A DNA stretch of 64,000 nucleotides. It comes from a virus. Within the stretch, counting starts at the first letter, position 1, and each line of letters opens with the position of its first letter. The DNA is taken from positions 32,001 to 96,000 of the IMG/VR virus record IMGVR_UViG_3300030419_007002, one strand, 5' to 3'. Both the position numbers and the translations under genes were made by a program. This document shows, one piece after another, positions 13,523 to 26,498 of this stretch. The notes below the pieces were generated by a model. The model made no database searches and was not told the DNA's origin. It saw only the letters and a list, made by a program, of their open reading frames with translations.

Positions 13523-14456
13523 TAAACCCAAGCTATGGTTATGCGGAATAACCCAAGACAGAGAAAAGGATGTGGAAGAAATGACTCGGCCAGAAGTCAT
13601 GGAGCACTTTGATGGATTAGTTTTTACGGATGGTTATTCAAAAGACGAAACTTATAGTATTCTTAACGAAAGAAAAAAAGAAGGAAAGATCGCTCGAAGA
13701 AAATGGACCAATGACCACGATTACCAAATGAACGAGTTCATGAGATGCGGAGCAATGAGTAACGGAGATTGGTTTGTTTTATTAGATTCGCCAGATAGAG
13801 TAAACCTAGATTGGGCAGCTGGCCTAAGGGAAGAAATAGAAAAGCTAGAAGAAGAATCGGTAGGAGCCGTAAACATGGACAGCAAAATACATCTAGCAAA
13901 ATATTTTGACCACATGTATTACGCCCCGAATCCTCACTGGGGCCTGCAAGGGGTCGTAAACAAAGTAGCATTTTACGACAAAGACCAGAAAGAGCAATGC
14001 ATAGAAAGTAAAAGGTTTGATAATCCAGTAAAATCAGCTTTAGTTCATCCCGTAAAATACTATTACGTATACGGAAGATCAAATCATTGCCAATTGCTTT
14101 ACGGAAGATTTGGTGCAGAAGCAGTCAACTTCCACGAAGCTAATAGGTTAAGGTTCAGATTGCATTGCGAAAAAATCTTAGGGCTAGACATCTCCACGTT
14201 AGATTCTCTAGAAGAATTCTATAGGAAGGGAGATTTTAGCGACGAATTCATAGATGCCGTGGAGCTAGAAGTAAACTTAAAAGATTACTTCAGATACAAA
14301 ATACTAGAACAAGACTTCGTAGAAGAGATAGATAAAAATAGAATTAATTGGAGTTTTAGACTATACTTAGATAGTGGAGACGCTAAACAAGAATCTACCG
14401 ATTATAAGGGCCCGATAAATCAATACCTAGAACAGGTAGGACAACCAGAAGAATGA
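13515..14456 (+). CDS. GT-A-like glycosyltransferase
   Basis: TDGYSKDET and WFVLLDSPDR pattern of GT2 N-domain; glycan cluster context. Confidence 0.55.
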   Translation: MIDKPKLWLCGITQDREKDVEEMTRPEVMEHFDGLVFTDGYSKDETYSILNERKKEGKIARRKWTNDHDYQMNEFMRCGAMSNGDWFVLLDSPDRVNLDWAAGLREEIEKLEEESVGAVNMDSKIHLAKYFDHMYYAPNPHWGLQGVVNKVAFYDKDQKEQCIESKRFDNPVKSALVHPVKYYYVYGRSNHCQLLYGRFGAEAVNFHEANRLRFRLHCEKILGLDISTLDSLEEFYRKGDFSDEFIDAVELEVNLKDYFRYKILEQDFVEEIDKNRINWSFRLYLDSGDAKQESTDYKGPINQYLEQVGQPEE

Positions 14457-15517
14457 AAAAAGTATTAGTTACAGGAATCCTAGGGCAGGATGGCGCTAAC
14501 ATGGCGGAGTTTTTACTATTTGAAAACGAAGAGCCAGTCCAAGTCTATGGAATGATGCGCAGAAGCTCTATACCTAATTTTACAAACACAGATAAATTTA
14601 GATATCATGAAAATTTTGAGTTTGTGCATGGTGATCTTTCTGATGACGTCAGTCTCGATAACCTAGTAAAAAAAATTCAACCAGACTACTTCGTTAACTT
14701 CGCAGCAAACTCTTTTGTTGGTTGTTCTTGGGATATGCCAGAGCAAGTCATGGATGTTAACACCCTTGGCGTCCTTAGGTGCTTGGAGTCTATACGTAAG
14801 TTCAAGCCAGATTGTAAATTTTACAGCGCAGGAAGTAGCGAAGAATGGGGGGACGTAGACTATTCACCCCAAGACATAAAGCACCCCATAAAACCCAGAA
14901 GCCCCTACGGAGCGTCAAAAGCAGCAGCTAGACATTTAGTAAAAGTTTACAGAGAATCGCACAATCTTTACGCAGTTCACGGAATACTCTTCAATCACGA
15001 AGGGACCAAGAGGGGGGAGGAGTTTGTTACTAGAAAAATAACGAAAGCAGTTGCAAAAATATATAACCAGAAACGGATTGGGCAAAAAATTACACCAGTT
15101 GAGCTTGGAAACCTAGACGCTAAACGCGACTGGAGCGATAGTAAGGATTTTGTGAAAGGGGTATGGCTAATGCTTAACCAAGAATCCCCCAAAGACTATA
15201 TATTGTCGAGCGGAGAAACGCACTCTATAAGGGAATTTGTAGAGCTAGCCTTCAAGGAGGCAGGAATAGAAGGTCAATGGAAAGGCGAGGGGGTGGAAGA
15301 AACTTACAATCTTAAAGATTCTGATCCTAGTCGATATTCTTCGGGAGAAACATTATTAAAAATAAATAAAAAATTTTACAGACCAGCAGAAGTAGACCTC
15401 TTATTAGGAGACTCCAGCCCCATAAGAGAAGAATTAGGCTGGAAACCAGAAATTTCATTTGACAATCTAGTAGCAAGTATGGTACAATATGATATTGGAT
15501 TGTTAGATGGCAAATAA
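14453..15517 (+). CDS. gmd: GDP-mannose 4,6-dehydratase
   Basis: TGILGQDG, AANSFV, SSEE, PRSPYGASK, GILFNHEG, EFVTRKIT, LGNLDAKRDW, RPAEVDLLLGD. Confidence 0.95.
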   Translation: MKKVLVTGILGQDGANMAEFLLFENEEPVQVYGMMRRSSIPNFTNTDKFRYHENFEFVHGDLSDDVSLDNLVKKIQPDYFVNFAANSFVGCSWDMPEQVMDVNTLGVLRCLESIRKFKPDCKFYSAGSSEEWGDVDYSPQDIKHPIKPRSPYGASKAAARHLVKVYRESHNLYAVHGILFNHEGTKRGEEFVTRKITKAVAKIYNQKRIGQKITPVELGNLDAKRDWSDSKDFVKGVWLMLNQESPKDYILSSGETHSIREFVELAFKEAGIEGQWKGEGVEETYNLKDSDPSRYSSGETLLKINKKFYRPAEVDLLLGDSSPIREELGWKPEISFDNLVASMVQYDIGLLDGK

Positions 15518-18615: not shown

Positions 18616-19382
18616 AATTTTTAGTAATAGGAGATAGCTGTACAGACAAATTTATCTACGGCAAATGCGAAAGGATATGCCCCGAAGCACCCGTGCCAGT
18701 CTTTAATCCGATAAAGGAAACCACCAATGGGGGCATGGCAGCTAACGTGAAAGCAAACGTTGAGTCTTTGGGCGTAGAATGTGATTTAATAACTCACGAA
18801 AATCAGATAGTTAAAACTAGATATGTAGATATTAAAACTAATCAAATGCTTCTGCGGGTCGATGAAAACGATGAGGCCATGGGAAAATTCAACCACGGAG
18901 AAGTAGATTGGAAAAAATATGATGCAGTTATTATTTCTAATTACGGAAAAGGTTTTCTCAACGGAATGAGTGATGTTAGAAAAATATGTTTAGAGCATGA
19001 TAATGTGTTTTTAGATAGTAATAAATGTAAGATAGATACAGATTTACCTTTAAATTTAAGATTCTTAAAAATAAATGAGTATGAACTAGAAATTAATCCT
19101 CACCTCAAGAGTCATCTAGAGCCAGACGTTGGATTTATGACAAATTATACTAGGCCAGATCAAATTATAATTACTCTGGGCCATAAGGGGTGCAGTTATA
19201 TGGGTAAGACTTACCCGCCGCCCAAGCGCGTTGTCGCTCAAGATTTATCTGGCGCAGGAGACACTTTTTTAGCAGCATTAGCCGTCTCCATAATGAAGGT
19301 CAACGAAGTAGAAATGGCTATAGAATTTGCAAACGAATGCGCTTCGAAAGTAGTTGAGAAAAGGGGAGTAAAAACAGTATGA
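18612..19382 (+). CDS. PfkB-family kinase, HldE/RfaE domain I-like (heptose-7-phosphate kinase)
   Basis: VIGDSCTD, RICPEAPVPV, GGMAANV, KTRY, SNYGKG, DLSGAGDTF. Confidence 0.85.
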   Translation: MKFLVIGDSCTDKFIYGKCERICPEAPVPVFNPIKETTNGGMAANVKANVESLGVECDLITHENQIVKTRYVDIKTNQMLLRVDENDEAMGKFNHGEVDWKKYDAVIISNYGKGFLNGMSDVRKICLEHDNVFLDSNKCKIDTDLPLNLRFLKINEYELEINPHLKSHLEPDVGFMTNYTRPDQIIITLGHKGCSYMGKTYPPPKRVVAQDLSGAGDTFLAALAVSIMKVNEVEMAIEFANECASKVVEKRGVKTV

Positions 19383-20314
19383 TTTATTTAGATGATTTAA
19401 CAGTTAAAGAATTGCTTGATAACAAGTGGCTTGAAATTGCTGAAGCCGTTGAGGAAGCATTTGTTGACCCAACGGCAGACATGGTTCCTAAAGTTTACCT
19501 TGAAGCAGGTAACGCTGGGGATTATAGGGCCATGCCAGCAGCATTAGGTGGCTACGCCGCTTTAAAATGGATTGGTGTGTTCCCTGACAATAAAAAACAC
19601 AGCCTTCCGACCACCATTGGTTCACTTATTCTTAACGATAGATACACGGGTCAGCCATTAATAGCAATGGACTGTACGACACTGACTGCGTATAGAACCG
19701 CCGCCACTTCCGCGATTGCTGCAAAATATTGCGCTCCAGACGCGGAAGAGTTTGCAATTATTGGTTGCGGGATACAGGGGAGGTACCATATCGAAGCCTA
19801 CGAAGCCATTTGTCAAGGCCACATGAAGTTAAGCATAGAGCTTTACGATACCAACGAAAGCCCCATGTTGCAAATGTTTAATTGGCTTGGTAGAGAAAAC
19901 CTTTGTCATGCTTGGGGCAGAAATAAGTCAGTAAAAGAAGCCGTTAAATACGCAGACGTTATCACGACACTCACGCCCTCGACTGAGGGCTATCTAAATA
20001 TACTTGATCTTAAAAGTAATTGTCATGTAAATGCAGTTGGCGCAGACGCCGTGGGTAAGCGTGAATTAATGACTAATGTAATTGACGGAGCCGCGAATAT
20101 CATTTGCGATGACCCAACGCAAGCTCTGCACTCTGGAGAATTACAATACAATGAGTGGCCTCATTTAGATGTTAGCTCCATGAATCATCTCATCAGGAAT
20201 CATAAAACCATGCAGTTAGACAGGGGCGTGTCAATATTTGACTCGACAGGGGTGGCGATAGAAGATATAGCTATCGCAGAATTAATCTATAGGCTTCACA
20301 ATGGACAAAAATAA
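19379..20314 (+). CDS. Ornithine cyclodeaminase / mu-crystallin family protein
   Basis: RAMPA, LTAYRTAATSA, GCGIQG, HVNAVGAD..GKREL, FDSTGVAIED. Confidence 0.9.
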   Translation: MIYLDDLTVKELLDNKWLEIAEAVEEAFVDPTADMVPKVYLEAGNAGDYRAMPAALGGYAALKWIGVFPDNKKHSLPTTIGSLILNDRYTGQPLIAMDCTTLTAYRTAATSAIAAKYCAPDAEEFAIIGCGIQGRYHIEAYEAICQGHMKLSIELYDTNESPMLQMFNWLGRENLCHAWGRNKSVKEAVKYADVITTLTPSTEGYLNILDLKSNCHVNAVGADAVGKRELMTNVIDGAANIICDDPTQALHSGELQYNEWPHLDVSSMNHLIRNHKTMQLDRGVSIFDSTGVAIEDIAIAELIYRLHNGQK

Positions 20315-20412
20315 TTTACTAAAATGGAAAATTCGCCGTTTAGAAGCTAAAATAAGTAAGCTAGAAGAAGAAAAAAGAACCTTGAAAAAGCGTCATAAAC
20401 ATCAAAGAAGTC

Positions 20413-20820
20413 GTGATAGAAAGGTATATATTCAATGCCGATGCTGAAGAATTATTTTATAATAAATTAAATAATTTACATGATAAGTATGTTTATCATC
20501 TTATATTAAGCGGAGTAGCAGATAAAGGCACGGATATTGAGTCTATAAAAATGACCAAAAATCCGCTTGCAAACAAAAAATATTGCGAAAAAATAGTGGG
20601 CGGGTTGGTAAATATCAAACCACAAATAATATCGAGCCTAAAAGAAGATGGAAAAGCCAAACTAGAGTGTATTTTTACAAAGATAGAAGACAATAAATAC
20701 TTAAACCATATCTACATGATACAGAATGTTATGGATTGGCCACAGCTAGACAAGTTCAGCTGCCAAATATGGTATCTCGGAGAGACTGGGCTTGAGGACA
20801 TTAAAAAAATTTGGGATTAA
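20413..20820 (+). CDS. Hypothetical protein
   Basis: 135-aa ORF in operon orientation. Confidence 0.55.
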   Translation: MIERYIFNADAEELFYNKLNNLHDKYVYHLILSGVADKGTDIESIKMTKNPLANKKYCEKIVGGLVNIKPQIISSLKEDGKAKLECIFTKIEDNKYLNHIYMIQNVMDWPQLDKFSCQIWYLGETGLEDIKKIWD

Positions 20821-20825
20821 TTTAA

Positions 20826-21311
20826 ATGAATACTTTTACTAAATGGTTTCTGATTAATGCGGTCATGGGAACTGCCGTTTTTTTTGCAGAACAAAAGGGC
20901 GCGGTATCTACCGTAATTAAAAATGACTTATCATATATTTCTATTTTGATAATGGCACTATACGTTGGAGTTTCTATTTACGTAGGGAGATTATGTTACT
21001 TAGCTGACAAAATAAATAAGAAAAGAGAAGACGACGCCAGAGAATATTTACTAAAACGATCAGACTTGGGGTGGTTCTCTGCGGAACATTTTTTCTCATT
21101 AGGGCTATTGGGTACGATCATAGGACTAATCTTCGCAACGAGAGGAAGTCTCGATTCATCACTACCAGTAGCAGATATAGTTGCGGGATTAAAAGAAGGG
21201 CTCAACACAGCCTTTTACACAACCGTGTGCGGAATTGTATTTAGCTTACCGCTACAGGTACAATTGGTAATTTTAAAATTTAAGCTAGAAACTCATGGCC
21301 ATAAAACCTAA
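20826..21311 (+). CDS. MotA/TolQ/ExbB proton-channel family membrane protein
   Basis: Four hydrophobic segments with LGLLGTIIGLI and GL..AFYTTVCG signature helices. Confidence 0.85.
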   Translation: MNTFTKWFLINAVMGTAVFFAEQKGAVSTVIKNDLSYISILIMALYVGVSIYVGRLCYLADKINKKREDDAREYLLKRSDLGWFSAEHFFSLGLLGTIIGLIFATRGSLDSSLPVADIVAGLKEGLNTAFYTTVCGIVFSLPLQVQLVILKFKLETHGHKT

Positions 21312-21456
21312 CAGAAGCGAAAGGCTCATCATAGTCATTGTGGCTTCAGCTGCGATTGGCTTTACGCTAGGGGTTCTGTCCATGGAGCAAAAGGTAAAAG
21401 AAAAAGACGAACAAGTAGAAGAACTACTTGGCGCAGTAGAGGATTTATTAAAATAA
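21295..21456 (+). CDS. 53-aa single-TM protein (below the ORF-track cutoff)
   Basis: MAIKPNRSERLIIVIVASAAIGFTLGVLSMEQKVKEKDEQVEELLGAVEDLLK; fills the gap exactly, TAATG coupling to the next gene. Confidence 0.65.
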   Translation: MAIKPNRSERLIIVIVASAAIGFTLGVLSMEQKVKEKDEQVEELLGAVEDLLK

Positions 21457-22049
21457 TGAGAAAATTTTTTTCATTCAGGCCATTCATTGACGTTTTGTTC
21501 TGCTGCCTTCTTATGTTGGTGGCGATCTTATTTCTGCTAAAGACAGAGGAAGAGAAAACTAAGTCTCGCCCTCCTAATGTGATTTATGAAATAGTACTGA
21601 CTTGGGATGGAGACAGTGAAGATGATCTAGACATCTATGTGCAAGCTGCATCGGGGCACAAGGTATACTTCAACAATAGGGAGGGCGGAGAAGGCAGTCT
21701 TATAAGCTTAGACCATGACGCGTTAGGCAAGCGAAGAAATAATAGCCTATCCCAAGGGCAAGAAGGGACTGTTGTAAAATTCAACGAAGAGATAGTCTCG
21801 TTTAGAGGGGTAACCGAAGGAGAAAACATAGTCACCGTTCACGTATATTCGAAAAGAGATGAAGAACCAACAGTAGCCACAATTAAATTAATAAAAATTA
21901 AACCATTCAGAGAAGTCATCACCAAGCAAAGACAATTCTCCACCACGGGGCAAGAAAAAATAGCCTTCAGGTTTAAAACAGACAAGGACGGAAACATCTT
22001 AGACGTAAATGAGTTACCAGCTAATTTAGTAAATCAATTAGGAGAATAA
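21456..22049 (+). CDS. ExbD/TolR/MotB-type TM anchor fused to a YfaP/DUF2135-like beta domain
   Basis: PFIDVLF TM helix with conserved Asp; soluble domain LTWDGDSEDDLDIYV...LDHD...EIV...GE..VTVHVY. Confidence 0.7.
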   Translation: MRKFFSFRPFIDVLFCCLLMLVAILFLLKTEEEKTKSRPPNVIYEIVLTWDGDSEDDLDIYVQAASGHKVYFNNREGGEGSLISLDHDALGKRRNNSLSQGQEGTVVKFNEEIVSFRGVTEGENIVTVHVYSKRDEEPTVATIKLIKIKPFREVITKQRQFSTTGQEKIAFRFKTDKDGNILDVNELPANLVNQLGE

Positions 22050-22051
22050 TC

Positions 22052-23050
22052 ATGAAACCATTAGTAGCAGTAGTAGACTGGAAGCAATCACCAAGAGGTG
22101 ATGAAAGTTGCTATATAGAAAAAGAGGCTATTGGTAATAGGGCGCGAGTTAAATATTTTAAATGCGATACGGATAAAGACTGGAAAGGGGAAGTATTAAA
22201 ATCGGACTATATCCTCTTATGGCACAATACAAGTATGCCCGATACAGTAATAAACAAGCTGGAAGACTGCAAAGCAATAATTAGAATTGGCACCGGATAT
22301 GATTCAGTCGATTATATTGCGGCCGCAACCAGAGACATCCCAGTTTGTAACGTTCCAGACTACGGAACAGATGAAGTTGCAGATCACTCCATAGCCTTAG
22401 CGCTTGCCCTTTGTCGCCAAATTATACCCATTGACCAAGAATGTAAAAACCTTGGTTGGGACATACCAAACAAAAATAAGATTCAAAGATTTGGAGAAAT
22501 GATGTTCGGGGTTATAGGGCTAGGCAGAATTGGAACATCTGTCGCCCTAAAGGCTAAAGCTCTCGGATTTGAAGTTCATTTTTATGACCCCTACCTTTCT
22601 AATGGCGTCGATAAATCCCTAGGTATAGCTAGAAGTAAAAATCTCGATAATTTTTTAGGCATGATGGATATAGTGTCCATTAATTGCCCGCTAACCGAAG
22701 AAACTCATCATATGATTACGAAGAGGGAGCTTAAAATAATGAGAAAAAATGCTTTCATTGTTAATACAGCGCGTGGATCCATTATAAAAAAGAAAGATTT
22801 ATTCTCCTCCCTCAGAAAAAATGATATAGGTGGCGCAGCCCTTGATGTAATAGAAGACGAGCCATTGAAGACAAAAAAAGAAGCCGAAACCCCCAACCTA
22901 ATTGTAACGTGTCATTCTGGATTTTACAGTATCCAAGCTGCATGGGAAATGAGACATAAGGCAGCATCAATCGCACGAGATATGATCTTAGGAGAAGATA
23001 TAGAGAATTGTATTAACTGTAATTTTTTACCAAGGAATTTTATAAAATGA
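22052..23050 (+). CDS. D-isomer 2-hydroxyacid dehydrogenase (CtBP/SerA-like)
   Basis: RIGTGYD, NVPDYGTDEVADH, GLGRIG, VNTARG, LDV..EP, HSGFYS. Confidence 0.9.
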   Translation: MKPLVAVVDWKQSPRGDESCYIEKEAIGNRARVKYFKCDTDKDWKGEVLKSDYILLWHNTSMPDTVINKLEDCKAIIRIGTGYDSVDYIAAATRDIPVCNVPDYGTDEVADHSIALALALCRQIIPIDQECKNLGWDIPNKNKIQRFGEMMFGVIGLGRIGTSVALKAKALGFEVHFYDPYLSNGVDKSLGIARSKNLDNFLGMMDIVSINCPLTEETHHMITKRELKIMRKNAFIVNTARGSIIKKKDLFSSLRKNDIGGAALDVIEDEPLKTKKEAETPNLIVTCHSGFYSIQAAWEMRHKAASIARDMILGEDIENCINCNFLPRNFIK

Positions 23051-23559
23051 TTTATTTATTATACGGACAACCGGGATCAGGCAAAACAACTCTGGGAAGT
23101 ATGTTGGCCAGAGAAATAGACACCCCATTTTTTATAGATGGAGATGAATTTCGTAAAATGTTTTCACGCCAGAACCTCGGGTACGGAAAGGCGGGCAGAA
23201 CCAAGAACATAAGGAATGTCAATGCGGTAGCAACCTTTTTAAATAAGAAAGGTAAAAGTGAAGACTGGATGTGCATTTATGTTCGTGACAAAAACAACCC
23301 CAACAGTATAGAGGGGATAAGCGTTAACAACGAAACTGATGTAGTTCTAAGTTTTGTTAACCCTTATGCAGAGCTAAGAGAAGAACTGAGGGTAGACAAT
23401 AAAGGGCAAGTGGTAGAGATTTTATTAAAGTCAGACAGAGATCTAAGGAAAGAATATCATGTTGAAGACTTCGAAGAAGGCAACCCAGATCACAGCATAT
23501 CCACAGACAAAGATGTTACAGAAGGTTGGGCTGAATTAAAAAATTTATTAAAATTATGA
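23047..23559 (+). CDS. cysC: Adenylyl-sulfate kinase-like P-loop kinase
   Basis: GQPGSGKTT, IDGDEFR, LGY...GR..NI, SFVNPY..LRE. Confidence 0.65.
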   Translation: MIYLLYGQPGSGKTTLGSMLAREIDTPFFIDGDEFRKMFSRQNLGYGKAGRTKNIRNVNAVATFLNKKGKSEDWMCIYVRDKNNPNSIEGISVNNETDVVLSFVNPYAELREELRVDNKGQVVEILLKSDRDLRKEYHVEDFEEGNPDHSISTDKDVTEGWAELKNLLKL

Positions 23560-23771
23560 AATTAATATTACTACTAGCAGCTTTTTATTTAGTTGGATGT
23601 TGCTGCCCAACATGTGAGCCAACTATATATTACAGCCCTAGCGGTAAACCATTCCCTACTAGTTGGGGTAGTCCTCCAGAGATACAGACTAAAGACTATC
23701 GACCCCTGCAAGAAGGTTATGGGCATGGCAGCAGCACCTTATATCATTGGATAGAGGAGAATCAAAAATGA
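23556..23771 (+). CDS. Small lipoprotein
   Basis: Signal peptide with lipobox LVG-C. Confidence 0.6.
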   Translation: MKLILLLAAFYLVGCCCPTCEPTIYYSPSGKPFPTSWGSPPEIQTKDYRPLQEGYGHGSSTLYHWIEENQK

Positions 23772-24223
23772 AAATATTACTATTCCTATTACTTACTAGT
23801 CTCTCTACCTACTCTCAAGTAGCTAGACCAACGTACAACCCATTCAATAATGGAGGCATTCCATTTTACGGTCAAAATCAAATGAGGCCGCAAAATAATT
23901 ACTACAATAACAATAACTTGTACAACAGACCGCAGTTTCCAAATAATACAAACCATCCTTTGAATTTTCATCGACCAAATAATTTTGGGTTTCAGAATAA
24001 TTTTCAAAGACCCCAGCAGTTCTTCCCGCAGAGTCAGCCGCAGCAAAATTGGCAGCAACCCCAAGTACAACCACAACAGCCTCAACCGCAGCAACCCGCT
24101 CCCCCACCAATGTTTACTAGAAAGTTCCATCTTAATAATGGATATTTATTCGGTAGGCCTACGCTATGGTACGACTCCAAATCTAACAAGATGCAGCCTT
24201 GGGTTAGGAAAAACCTAAGATAG
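23768..24223 (+). CDS. Secreted N/Q/P-rich low-complexity protein
   Basis: ATGA overlap with previous stop; signal peptide MKILLFLLLTSLSTYS then N/Q/P/F-rich tract. Confidence 0.6.
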   Translation: MKILLFLLLTSLSTYSQVARPTYNPFNNGGIPFYGQNQMRPQNNYYNNNNLYNRPQFPNNTNHPLNFHRPNNFGFQNNFQRPQQFFPQSQPQQNWQQPQVQPQQPQPQQPAPPPMFTRKFHLNNGYLFGRPTLWYDSKSNKMQPWVRKNLR

Positions 24224-24232
24224 CTAAGCGTA

Positions 24233-24499
24233 ATGAAAGCTAAATTTCCAGAAGGTTACGGGGAGTACAAAGAGTATGATTTTGATAACAGGATCAGCTA
24301 CGAAGAAGACTCTGATTCAATGTATATCTACGTCGCTCCGCCCCAAGGGCAAGTGGGGGCAGTAATGGTTTACAATGAAGATGGGTGTATGGTATCAATA
24401 GATACGGACGAAGTGAATACTCAAGTAGGTATTGAAATAATTGGCGTGTCTAAATTAATGGATAAATTTAATCTAAAGAATATAATAAAGAAGAACTAA
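24233..24499 (+). CDS. DUF2283-like protein
   Basis: ISYEEDSDSMYIY...IDTD....VGIEIIGVSK. Confidence 0.7.
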   Translation: MKAKFPEGYGEYKEYDFDNRISYEEDSDSMYIYVAPPQGQVGAVMVYNEDGCMVSIDTDEVNTQVGIEIIGVSKLMDKFNLKNIIKKN

Positions 24500-24500
24500 A

Positions 24501-24674
24501 ATGGAAAATAAACACAGAGAGCCTTGGGAAATCATAGGCATCATAACCTCAGGATATTTAGGAGTATTATTAGTGCATTGTGTACTTACGGCTATGGAGT
24601 ATGGAATGTTAATTGTAAATTATAAAAAAGAATTTAATTTGGGAGACTGCTTTCACGTGCCCTTATTAGTATAA
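24501..24674 (+). CDS. 57-aa membrane protein
   Basis: Read by hand: MENKHREPWEIIGIITSGYLGVLLVHCVLTA...; tiles the gap between neighbours. Confidence 0.5.
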   Translation: MENKHREPWEIIGIITSGYLGVLLVHCVLTAMEYGMLIVNYKKEFNLGDCFHVPLLV

Positions 24675-24835
24675 TGCTTAAAAAAATTATATTAATATTT
24701 TTTGCAGTTTTAACTATTCTTTTTGTTATACAGGCATTACCTGTTATACTTGCTATCGTTTATTTAGGGGGTTGGATGATATGGTGCGTTCTAACAGGGG
24801 ATTCTTTTTGGGGTGAGTATGGCCCGTTTTGGTAA
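24674..24835 (+). CDS. 53-aa very hydrophobic protein
   Basis: Read by hand: MLKKIILIFFAVLTILFVIQALPVILAIVYLGGWMIWCVLTG...; TAATG coupling. Confidence 0.5.
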   Translation: MLKKIILIFFAVLTILFVIQALPVILAIVYLGGWMIWCVLTGDSFWGEYGPFW

Positions 24836-24836
24836 A

Positions 24837-25133
24837 ATGGAAAGTCGAAAAAAATTTATAAAATGCAGTTGTCACGGCGAAGGTATGCTACTTGCCAAGT
24901 TTGACGGCGAAGAAGAAATCTATGTTAGCTTTTGGCGAGAGGGCATAAACCCCGTCAAATTAACTTGGTGGATGAGACTGAAGCTGTGTTACTTGGCTTT
25001 ATTTAAGGGCAATTATTATGACGACCAGTTAGTTTTAAGTAAAGAAGAAGCAAGACAGCTTTGTACGTGGATTCAGGATGAATACGACATGGACGCGGTG
25101 GAAAGAGAGATGGAAAAAGATGTGGAACAATAG
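24837..25133 (+). CDS. Hypothetical phage protein (CxCH motif)
   Basis: ORF from the ATG right after the previous stop; FIKCSCHGE. Confidence 0.55.
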   Translation: MESRKKFIKCSCHGEGMLLAKFDGEEEIYVSFWREGINPVKLTWWMRLKLCYLALFKGNYYDDQLVLSKEEARQLCTWIQDEYDMDAVEREMEKDVEQ

Positions 25134-25356
25134 AATCATAAAGCACGAAAAGGATGGAGTCACTTGGCATAGTGTCCATGAAGTCTTTTACAATGAAGAC
25201 GGTAGCATTTATGGTCACACCGAAGACCCAATTACTATCGTTGGAGAAACCGAAGAAGAAGCGGTAGAACAAGCGGAACAAATATTGAGAGATATTAAAG
25301 ATACGCCAGTTCTTGTGGCGTCTGAAATAGAATTTAAAGACCATGAAGAAATATAA
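25120..25356 (+). CDS. Hypothetical phage protein
   Basis: MWNNRII...HEVFY...G...TE.P pattern seen in small phage proteins. Confidence 0.55.
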   Translation: MWNNRIIKHEKDGVTWHSVHEVFYNEDGSIYGHTEDPITIVGETEEEAVEQAEQILRDIKDTPVLVASEIEFKDHEEI

Positions 25357-25696
25357 AAAAGAACGATTAGAGAAAAAAGGCTGGTCTGTTGGAGATACGG
25401 ATGATTTTCTAAATGACGAGTCTCTTGAAGAATTTATGTCTAGTGATTTTCCGAGGGTTTATATACATGACGTTAAAAATAACCCAGACGATACCTGCTC
25501 TATAGAAATTTCTACTAATAAAGCTTTTGACGAACTCTTTAAGAAAGAAAAAAATCGTAAGCGAGTTAGCAATAAAGGAATACAGGAGTTTTTTATAGAG
25601 CTACTCGAAAAGGGTCTAGCTAAAGAAGATGGGTACGATTTAAAGACATTAGACAAGCGTAAGTCAAGTCGTAAGGCAAGTAAACTTTACAAATAG
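25343..25696 (+). CDS. Hypothetical protein
   Basis: 117-aa ORF; N-terminus RLEKKGWSVG..DFL. Confidence 0.55.
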   Translation: MKKYKKERLEKKGWSVGDTDDFLNDESLEEFMSSDFPRVYIHDVKNNPDDTCSIEISTNKAFDELFKKEKNRKRVSNKGIQEFFIELLEKGLAKEDGYDLKTLDKRKSSRKASKLYK

Positions 25697-25722
25697 ACGG
25701 ACAAATGTAAAAAAGCTAAAAG

Positions 25723-25917
25723 ATGTTTAAAAGACTTTGGTTAATTTGGTCGAGGACGGTAGATCATCGCATTGGCAAAACCGACGATGACGCCCCAGAT
25801 ATTCCAATTTTAAAAAACAAAGATGCGAATATTAGTTTGTTAATAAGGACCGTAATCGTTATAATAAATGTAGTAACTTGTTTTTTTATTATAGCTAATG
25901 TGATAAGGCACTGGTAA
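25723..25917 (+). CDS. Small membrane protein of aquatic-phage type
   Basis: W..W...D...IRT...FFIIANVIRHW C-terminal TM. Confidence 0.55.
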   Translation: MFKRLWLIWSRTVDHRIGKTDDDAPDIPILKNKDANISLLIRTVIVIINVVTCFFIIANVIRHW

Positions 25918-25919
25918 AT

Positions 25920-26498
25920 ATGAATATAGCATTACCAATTTTATTATTAGTATTTGGAGCACTGAGCTTTTGGATACTCACTGAATCAAGCGTTAGGTGG
26001 TATATCAAAACGGCTTGCATTACAACGTTTTGTTTATTCACGATCGTTTTTTGGACAACTATACACACCTTCTTGGGGTGGTCGGCTCACGAAGAATATA
26101 TGCCTCAAAAAGTTTTGGTTCATTGGGTAATAATCAAAGAGCCCAATAAAGTAACCGAGTCGAAAGGCTCTATACACATTTTGATAGAGTCCATAGAAGA
26201 CGCAAAAGGAAATATGATTTCCAAATTCTTCGGCTACAGAACGGATAAAATTGAGCCAAGGCTATTTGAACTAAAATACAACAGAGAGCTTCACGAAAAA
26301 CTCGAAAAATTAAAACAGAGACTTAAACAAGGCCAACCTGTAGCTGGTAAATTCACCAAAGAAGGAGAGAAAGGAAAGGCTAAGGGTGGAAAGGGAAAGA
26401 AAAACGACAAGAACGGAGAGGGCAGCGAATCTCAAGAGCAAAGCTGGGAATTCCACGAATTATTACCATCAGAAATACAAGGGAAACCAGAGCGATGA
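25920..26498 (+). CDS. Two-TM membrane protein with soluble domain
   Basis: Two N-terminal TM helices, then GW..P...IKEP...EPRLF.L.Y..ELH, G/K-rich tail. Confidence 0.7.
   Translation: MNIALPILLLVFGALSFWILTESSVRWYIKTACITTFCLFTIVFWTTIHTFLGWSAHEEYMPQKVLVHWVIIKEPNKVTESKGSIHILIESIEDAKGNMISKFFGYRTDKIEPRLFELKYNRELHEKLEKLKQRLKQGQPVAGKFTKEGEKGKAKGGKGKKNDKNGEGSESQEQSWEFHELLPSEIQGKPER

Follow-up and report, generated by a model that had tools for sequence, protein, structure and literature searches.

Ion-driven 5:2 motors are among the few means by which bacteria deliver energy beyond their inner membrane, and each of the known classes has opened a field of its own: motility, nutrient uptake, envelope integrity, gliding and secretion, and anti-phage defence. 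We analysed a marine phage locus related to these motors in the IMG/VR virus record IMGVR_UViG_3300030419_007002, which is 104 kb long and about 60% complete. The window, i.e., the whole stretch of DNA under study, comprises 64,000 nucleotides (nt) and corresponds to bases 32001 to 96000 of that record; positions below are those of the window. Three genes of its plus strand, called here A (20826 to 21311), B (21456 to 22049) and C (25920 to 26498), are the subject of this work. An earlier reading of the letters alone (the original prediction) had described A, B and a 53-amino-acid (aa) open reading frame (ORF) between them as a phage stator-like module. We consider it probable, at roughly 0.7, that the window contains, in split form, a widespread and unnamed A-B-C module and that this module functions as an ion-driven envelope motor of the 5:2 type with new partner proteins.

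The closest described systems are Tol-Pal and Ton. They share with the trio the order of a channel subunit, a subunit with an Asp-bearing helix and a membrane-anchored third protein, together with an output that would be periplasmic in the trio as well. A aligns with TolQ and ExbB over two channel helices, and the helix of B aligns with that of ExbD and TolR, Asp on Asp. Nevertheless, A is some 70 to 130 residues shorter than TolQ and ExbB and has almost no cytoplasmic domain, and the periplasmic part of B is a YfaP/TerD-like beta-sandwich rather than an ExbD fold. C differs from TonB and TolA in its hairpin of two helices and its small beta-barrel, and the trio is not accompanied by genes for Pal, TolB or TonB-dependent receptors.

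The flagellar stators MotAB and PomAB provide the best matches of the A profile among solved structures, and in B as in these systems the Asp is near the cytoplasmic end of the helix; the four-helix topology of A may be a further likeness. However, A lacks the torque-generating cytoplasmic domain of MotA, B lacks the OmpA-type peptidoglycan-binding domain of MotB, with the Pfam plug region matched in one of 50 members of its family (E 0.004), and the window has no flagellar genes. Zorya also belongs to the MotA/ExbB superfamily and represents a 5:2 motor tied to phage-host conflict. It differs in that the cytoplasmic tail of ZorA counts hundreds of residues, compared with 161 aa for the whole of A, which scores 26 with the NCBIfam ZorA model against a cut-off of 500. 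ZorB moreover has a peptidoglycan-binding domain, whereas the trio is phage-carried and without ZorC, ZorD or ZorE in Pfam scans of its neighbours. A literature search on the A-B-C family found no paper describing it. A 2025 survey of Tol and Ton force transducers (PMC12204202) does not mention the trio, and a 2025 survey of MotAB homologs (PMC12505986) includes non-flagellar members without an assigned function but neither the trio nor phage copies.

A three-gene module in phages and bacteria

The conservation of the module was assessed in viral loci first. A lies directly upstream of B in all 32 sister viral loci. A second viral scan yielded 203 further contigs, 80 of which were kept for neighbourhood counts; the order A-B-C was found in 79 of them, mostly with overlapping stops and starts, and the exception ends at a contig end. 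B also reached cultured Rhizobium phages of several types in tblastn searches, at 24 to 29% identity; each of these distant homologs is preceded by an overlapping gene positive for MotA_ExbB, placed directly upstream of B in four phage types, and followed by C. The neighbourhood survey thus bore out the proposed pairing, as A and B were never separated in the 32 and 80 viral loci or in the Rhizobium phages.

The third gene had escaped the original prediction, which took A, the 53-aa ORF and B as the complete module. Its first trace was a gene of about 145 aa with two transmembrane (TM) helices located after B in the Rhizobium phages. A profile of that protein gave weak but repeated matches to an ORF of about 195 aa downstream of B in marine phages, and hhalign related the C protein of the window to that of the Rhizobium phages with 93.8% probability. 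A hidden Markov model (HMM) built from bacterial C sequences only matched the window protein over nearly its full length (E 5.8e-36, 122 bits), and it had further matches in 16 sister loci. L035 is the most divergent of the sisters, and there C is contiguous with B and comes directly after it.

We then scanned one genome per prokaryotic species and kept 80 loci for neighbourhood counts. Relatives of B were present in at least 586 bacterial species, which disproves the idea of a phage-specific module. Carriers include cultured Sphaerotilus, Ideonella, Azohydromonas and Pseudaquabacterium, as well as metagenome-assembled genomes (MAGs) of Pelagibacteraceae and many other Proteobacteria. HMMs built from phage sequences matched the genes flanking B, down to E 1e-30, as A in 63 and as C in 69 of the 80 bacterial loci, and clustering placed A upstream of B in 77. 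Carriers of the trio also hold five to eight canonical ExbD/TolR genes, indicating that the trio is an additional, separate system. A, B and C travel together in phages and bacteria.

Some carrier assignments call for caution. A Saccharibacteria contig (L073) looks cellular, with DnaX and GNAT genes. On a 7-kb 'Chloroflexota' MAG contig of 35% GC (L112), ribonucleotide reductase (RNR) and ClpP genes are next to the trio, and this contig looks like phage DNA binned into a MAG. The labels of high-GC 'Parcubacteria' and 'Bifidobacterium' carriers are doubtful. Monoderm carriers had been considered as a case against an outer-membrane target; this argument was dropped, the carrier labels being doubtful.

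The A, B and C proteins of the window match the family profiles, their order and strand are kept, and all invariant residues of the three proteins are present. The window trio is not contiguous and does not show the overlapping stops and starts of its relatives: in the phage lineage of the window, the operon is split by cargo inserts, including the 53-aa ORF.

The channel, Asp-helix and hairpin subunits

A is a minimal channel subunit of the MotA/TolQ/ExbB type, 161 aa in length. It contains the motifs on which its assignment had been based, LGLLGTIIG at residues 92 to 100 and GLNTAFYTTVCG at residues 125 to 136. The Pfam MotA_ExbB model (PF01618) recognised it, albeit narrowly, with 25.1 bits for a cut-off of 22.9, and with 24.5 bits in a six-frame genome search, where it was the sole match in the whole record; bacterial homologs reach up to 41.5 bits. 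Using a profile of 38 phage and bacterial sequences, we found MotA (8gqy, E 4.7e-5) to be the best match among solved structures, followed by PomA (E 0.002), TolQ (E 0.01), ExbB (E 0.16) and a ZorA-type protein. The matches to solved proteins were always confined to the last two helices, those of the channel, and the channel motifs align, LGLLGT-IG of A with GMIGTLIG and G-STALYTT-G of A with GMAVALITTLYG. Residues G93, G100, G125, A129, T133 and G136 are invariant in the 38 sequences, and T97, T132, D34 and W83 are nearly so.

The predicted four-helix topology was supported in part. Three segments are strongly hydrophobic (residues 35 to 53, 86 to 104 and 134 to 152); the N-terminal one is weaker, and a Rhizobium-phage homolog of 113 aa does without it. 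The cytoplasmic loop between the helices at 35 to 53 and 86 to 104 counts about 30 residues, compared with about 100 in gammaproteobacterial homologs, and no sizeable cytoplasmic domain was present between the membrane helices of A. In NCBIfam and PADLOC scans, all matches of A to ZorA and MotA models remained below threshold; the ZorA models cover some 60 residues of its channel helices and score 23 to 26 against cut-offs of 100 to 700. By its sequence, A belongs to the MotA/TolQ/ExbB channel family, in a stripped-down form.

B (197 aa) starts with a TM helix of the ExbD/TolR/MotB type, followed by a periplasmic beta-sandwich at about residues 41 to 190. The predicted PFIDVLF helix with Asp12 is present at its N terminus, which is positively charged (R2, K3 and R8) ahead of a single, very hydrophobic helix. 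This helix is nearly constant among sister phages, while the remainder of B has drifted to 66 to 72% identity. A profile search of 1.84 billion representative proteins returned 1,466 clusters of relatives at an E value of 0.001 or below, nearly all of about 200 aa and with the same layout. In 50 relatives at 26 to 60% identity, D12, W50, D57, D59, L85, D88, G91, E112 and G122 are invariant.

B does not contain the ExbD domain, in agreement with the original prediction. The Pfam ExbD model (PF02472) gave 13.3 bits for a cut-off of 25.4 (E 0.087) over the TM helix only, none of the 50 relatives matched it, and an hhalign comparison with eight ExbD/TolR proteins from trio-carrying genomes aligned just the 19 columns of the helix, Asp on Asp. 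Neither B nor the 50 relatives matched the Pfam OmpA model, in line with the predicted lack of an OmpA-like domain, and no relative matched those for DUF2135 (PF09906) and TerD. The Pfam model of PPC had one match among the 50, and a DUF2135 scan of five trio-carrying genomes gave no match.

The YfaP/DUF2135-like character proposed for the periplasmic domain holds as remote homology, because hhalign related the B profile to Escherichia coli YfaP with 86% probability (E 5e-6, 76 columns). Residues 40 to 137 of B align with residues 139 to 217 of YfaP and share the pattern W-D...DLDL-V-P-G...G-Y-V-V-Y, even though the Pfam DUF2135 and TerD models miss the family. An Atlas neighbour cluster carries the automatic name YfaP.

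The AlphaFold2 (AF2) model of B, with a predicted local distance difference test (pLDDT) score of 70, shows the helix followed by an all-beta sandwich. Among known structures, the model best matches TerD and the calcium-binding beta-jelly roll of Tk-SP subtilisin. Foldseek retrieved the TerD structures 2qng, 3ibz and 2qz7 at E 0.007 to 0.03, and VIA gave a Z score of 7.0 for 2qz7_B, with a root mean square deviation of 3.8 over 118 residues, and of 6.0 for 2kxt. The Tk-SP domain was found with a Z score of 6 at 22 to 24% identity, and it also surfaces as a match of B by sequence. B thus combines an Asp helix of the ExbD/TolR/MotB type with a beta-sandwich bearing conserved acidic residues, the latter being remotely like the YfaP/DUF2135, TerD and PPC domains. 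We know of no YfaP, TerD or PPC protein tethered to an Asp-bearing motor helix.

C (192 aa) has a TM hairpin (residues 4 to 22 and 27 to 51), a domain at residues 64 to 147 made of a small beta-barrel plus a helix, a flexible linker rich in charges and, at its C-terminal end, a conserved motif. The AF2 model (pLDDT 77.5) shows the hairpin and then the barrel with its helix, and it ends in a strand that is preceded by a charged and disordered stretch. The positive-inside charge bias puts the loop of the hairpin in the cytoplasm and the domain, by prediction, in the periplasm. In three viral contigs (L194, L195 and L196), C is fused at its C-terminal end to a GH24 phage lysozyme, yielding proteins of about 300 aa whose lysozyme parts were recognised by Pfam with E values of 5e-47 and 6e-50. 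These fusions therefore argue for a periplasmic C domain and for peptidoglycan as the site of action.

A Pfam scan of C, including TonB and TolA, gave no match. Structure searches with the soluble domain returned only weak OB-like rows (E 0.13 or worse), and the VIA list for C was filled by matches of the hairpin. A search for longer C-containing proteins of 371 to 2000 aa found none, which is weak evidence. Complex prediction for full-length B and C, run without controls, scored 0.00 for a mark of 0.32 and is uninformative on binding.

Inserted genes and genomic setting

The 53-aa ORF (21295 to 21456, plus strand) codes for a peptide with a single TM segment at residues 11 to 29. It fills the 145-nt gap between A and B, overlapping A by 17 nt and B by 1 nt, and the three ORFs are where the original prediction had placed them. 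The peptide is not a conserved component, as it is absent in 30 of the 32 sister loci. In 25 of the 32, A runs directly up to B or overlaps it, so that no further ORF would fit; the remaining seven have inserts between the two genes that are unrelated to the 53-aa peptide, namely single-TM peptides of 31, 68 and 87 aa and ORFs of 29, 75, 170 and 371 aa. Small single-TM ORFs were found between A and B in L010, L015 and L017. The 75-aa ORF is ferredoxin-like and Cys-rich (L030, 3747 to 3974), that of 170 aa is methyltransferase-like (L032, 3486 to 3998), and that of 371 aa is of no known kind (L033, 2884 to 3999).

At the protein level, only two relatives of the peptide were found, in L025 (E 1e-10), directly upstream of C, and in L033 (E 1e-6), both located elsewhere than in the slot of the window, and a scan of viral contigs for relatives found none. 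The 53-aa ORF is a real but sporadic gene for a small membrane protein and not a core part of the module, and the junction of A and B is a hot spot for insertions.

The layout of A, the 53-aa ORF and B does not stem from faulty assembly, because an independent marine run, made in another study, contains a contig that is identical to the window from 21040 to 22400, with 0 differences.

B and C are separated in the window by 3.9 kb of cargo (22052 to 25919). It comprises genes for a 2-hydroxyacid dehydrogenase, a P-loop kinase-like protein, a 71-aa lipoprotein (23556 to 23771), a Gln/Asn/Pro-rich secreted protein, DUF2283 (24233 to 24499) and small membrane proteins. The secreted protein (23747 to 24223) has a signal peptide, about 150 aa, and PQQ and NN runs, and it matched no family. 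Scans for terminator and promoter patterns between A and C gave nothing decisive.

The positions of the cargo genes relative to the trio vary among sister phages: that for DUF2283 is placed between A and B in L017 (3362 to 3631), and that for the 71-aa lipoprotein upstream of A in L025 (3248 to 3460). Within the cargo, the segment from 24684 to 25900 showed a contig depth 5 to 10 times that of its flanks in four marine metagenome runs, where variant contigs were numerous and small skips occurred. Its behaviour is that of sequence common to many marine phages, or of a mobile piece.

The presence of genes for RNR, DnaB helicase, a DnaE-type DNA polymerase and lambda-J-like tail proteins confirmed the phage context. 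The DNA polymerase is less than 30% identical to that of any deposited phage, and there is no close cultured relative. A DNA-level search of deposited phages with positions 19000 to 24000 found no match, nor did tblastn searches of deposited phages with A and with C, and a search of PHROGs assigned neither A nor B nor the 53-aa ORF to a family. The trio is embedded in a 17-kb block of sugar-nucleotide and glycosyltransferase genes, with a gene for GDP-mannose 4,6-dehydratase (gmd, 14453 to 15517) located 5 kb upstream of A. In agreement with the original prediction, Pfam scans of the surrounding genes between 17 and 27.7 kb did not detect a partner of the TonB, flagellar or Zorya kind.

In phages, the trio is found beside replication and early genes, including those for primase, ERCC4, HNH, topoisomerase and late sigma factor. 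A gmd gene directly follows C in 22 of the 80 further viral contigs (e.g., L125, 4715 to 5749). These contigs may belong to one phage lineage, and synteny, not linkage, would then account for the arrangement. In about 15 gammaproteobacterial loci, genes for an L,D-transpeptidase (YkuD) and a DUF302 protein lie upstream, and one for a vWA-FHA protein of about 510 aa lies downstream (in L063, 1916 to 2988 and 5277 to 6797). SufBD genes adjoin the trio in Pelagibacteraceae. Loci of Burkholderiales (Ideonella, Sphaerotilus, Azohydromonas and relatives) have a fourth gene of 240 to 260 aa after C, for which a Pfam scan found no family (e.g., L101, 5114 to 5893).

Possible roles at the cell envelope

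By analogy with the solved 5:2 motors MotAB, ExbBD and TolQR, five A subunits would surround two B helices. Ions would pass along a path lined by Asp12 of B and by Thr97 and Thr132-133 of A, turning or flexing the complex. Because A has almost no cytoplasmic domain, the work would be delivered on the periplasmic side, through the sandwich of B, the domain of C and its flexible tail. The C-lysozyme fusions point to the peptidoglycan layer as the likely site of action, instead of the PMF drain, superinfection exclusion, interference with host Ton, Tol or Zorya, or export that the original prediction had suggested (PMF, proton motive force). The phage would probably use the trio during infection, to alter or hold the envelope of its host, rather than as a part of the virion, because the genes are in the early/middle block of the phage. 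We rank such a general role in the envelope or cell wall first, above four other explanations.

Several points weigh against this envelope motor. The 5:2 assembly and the ion path are drawn by homology from other motors, and the Pfam score of A is just 2 bits above the cut-off. The fold model of B is only moderately confident at its pLDDT of 70, and the Z scores of 6 to 7 are in the range reached by unrelated beta-sandwiches. Structure searches with the soluble domain of C found no significant match. The link to the cell wall is thin, as the lysozyme fusions occur in only three of the 80 viral loci and the L,D-transpeptidase neighbour is lineage specific. Lastly, the broken-up operon of the window could mean that the coupling has been relaxed; its conserved residues are nonetheless intact.

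It is also conceivable that the module times lysis, with a motor that senses or uses the PMF to hold a membrane-tethered wall hydrolase, either C or a partner of it, inactive until the membrane is de-energised. Signal-arrest-release (SAR) endolysins, which are freed on PMF collapse, provide the model. The fusions of C to GH24 lysozyme and its membrane anchor and periplasmic tail are consistent with this role. However, most C proteins, including that of the window, have no hydrolase domain, the trio is found among early and replication genes instead of lysis cassettes, and it is common on bacterial chromosomes beside cellular genes such as SufBD and DnaX. We therefore regard a lysis timer as unlikely.

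Still less probable is the reading closest to the original prediction, according to which A, the 53-aa peptide and B would suffice for a phage-specific channel or motor, one draining or tapping the PMF of the host for takeover or superinfection exclusion. The overlaps of the three ORFs look like translational coupling, the peptide has a clear TM helix, and other small single-TM ORFs occupy the A-B junction in L010, L015 and L017. Nevertheless, nearly all sister loci lack the peptide, its two relatives occupy other positions, A and B mostly abut, and the other inserts at this junction, such as the ferredoxin-like, methyltransferase-like and 371-aa ORFs, are unrelated to it. The module is furthermore common on bacterial chromosomes, and it always comes with C.

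We give equally little credence to a decoy or plug-in function, in which A and B would mix with TolQR or ExbBD of the host, or drive its TolA or TonB, thereby keeping the envelope intact or blocking the TonB-dependent entry of rival phages. The helix motif of B is almost identical to that of ExbD/TolR (PFIDV), and A aligns with TolQ and ExbB. In contrast, B lacks the periplasmic domain of ExbD fold that contacts TonB and TolA, the trio brings its own partner C, and the canonical ExbD/TolR genes kept by its bacterial carriers fit an independent machine. Least likely of all, the neighbouring sugar genes might make a glycan whose export or placement at the surface the trio would energise, as suggested by the place of the trio inside the sugar block, by the gmd genes after C and by the related motors AglRQS and GldLM, which drive surface polymer or protein transport, but the sugar neighbours are absent in the Rhizobium phages and bacterial loci, the 22 gmd-bearing contigs may be one lineage, and no transporter or polymerase partner was seen.

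The preferred reading, that of an ion-driven envelope motor, makes the trio a compact version of the known machines, with two partner proteins of unknown families. More speculatively, the trio could be a further functional class of 5:2 ion-driven motors, next to the flagellar, Ton/Tol, gliding/T9SS and Zorya classes; as a self-contained machine, it would use the membrane potential to move or activate a periplasmic effector at the cell wall, and lytic phages would carry it to reshape or guard the envelope of the host during infection. We hold this wider proposal to be possible rather than likely. Local wall remodelling, blocking of the entry of rival phages or gating of a hydrolase would be examples of such phage use.

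For annotation, the lesson is that the module should be read as three genes, which cargo inserts can part by kilobases. It occurs in at least 586 species of bacteria, with cultured strains of Ideonella, Sphaerotilus and Azohydromonas among the carriers, and in over 230 viral contigs, among which are those of cultured Rhizobium phages. As tractable hosts and phages carry the trio, its function is directly testable. A phage-borne motor would represent a new kind of auxiliary gene acting on the envelope of the host.

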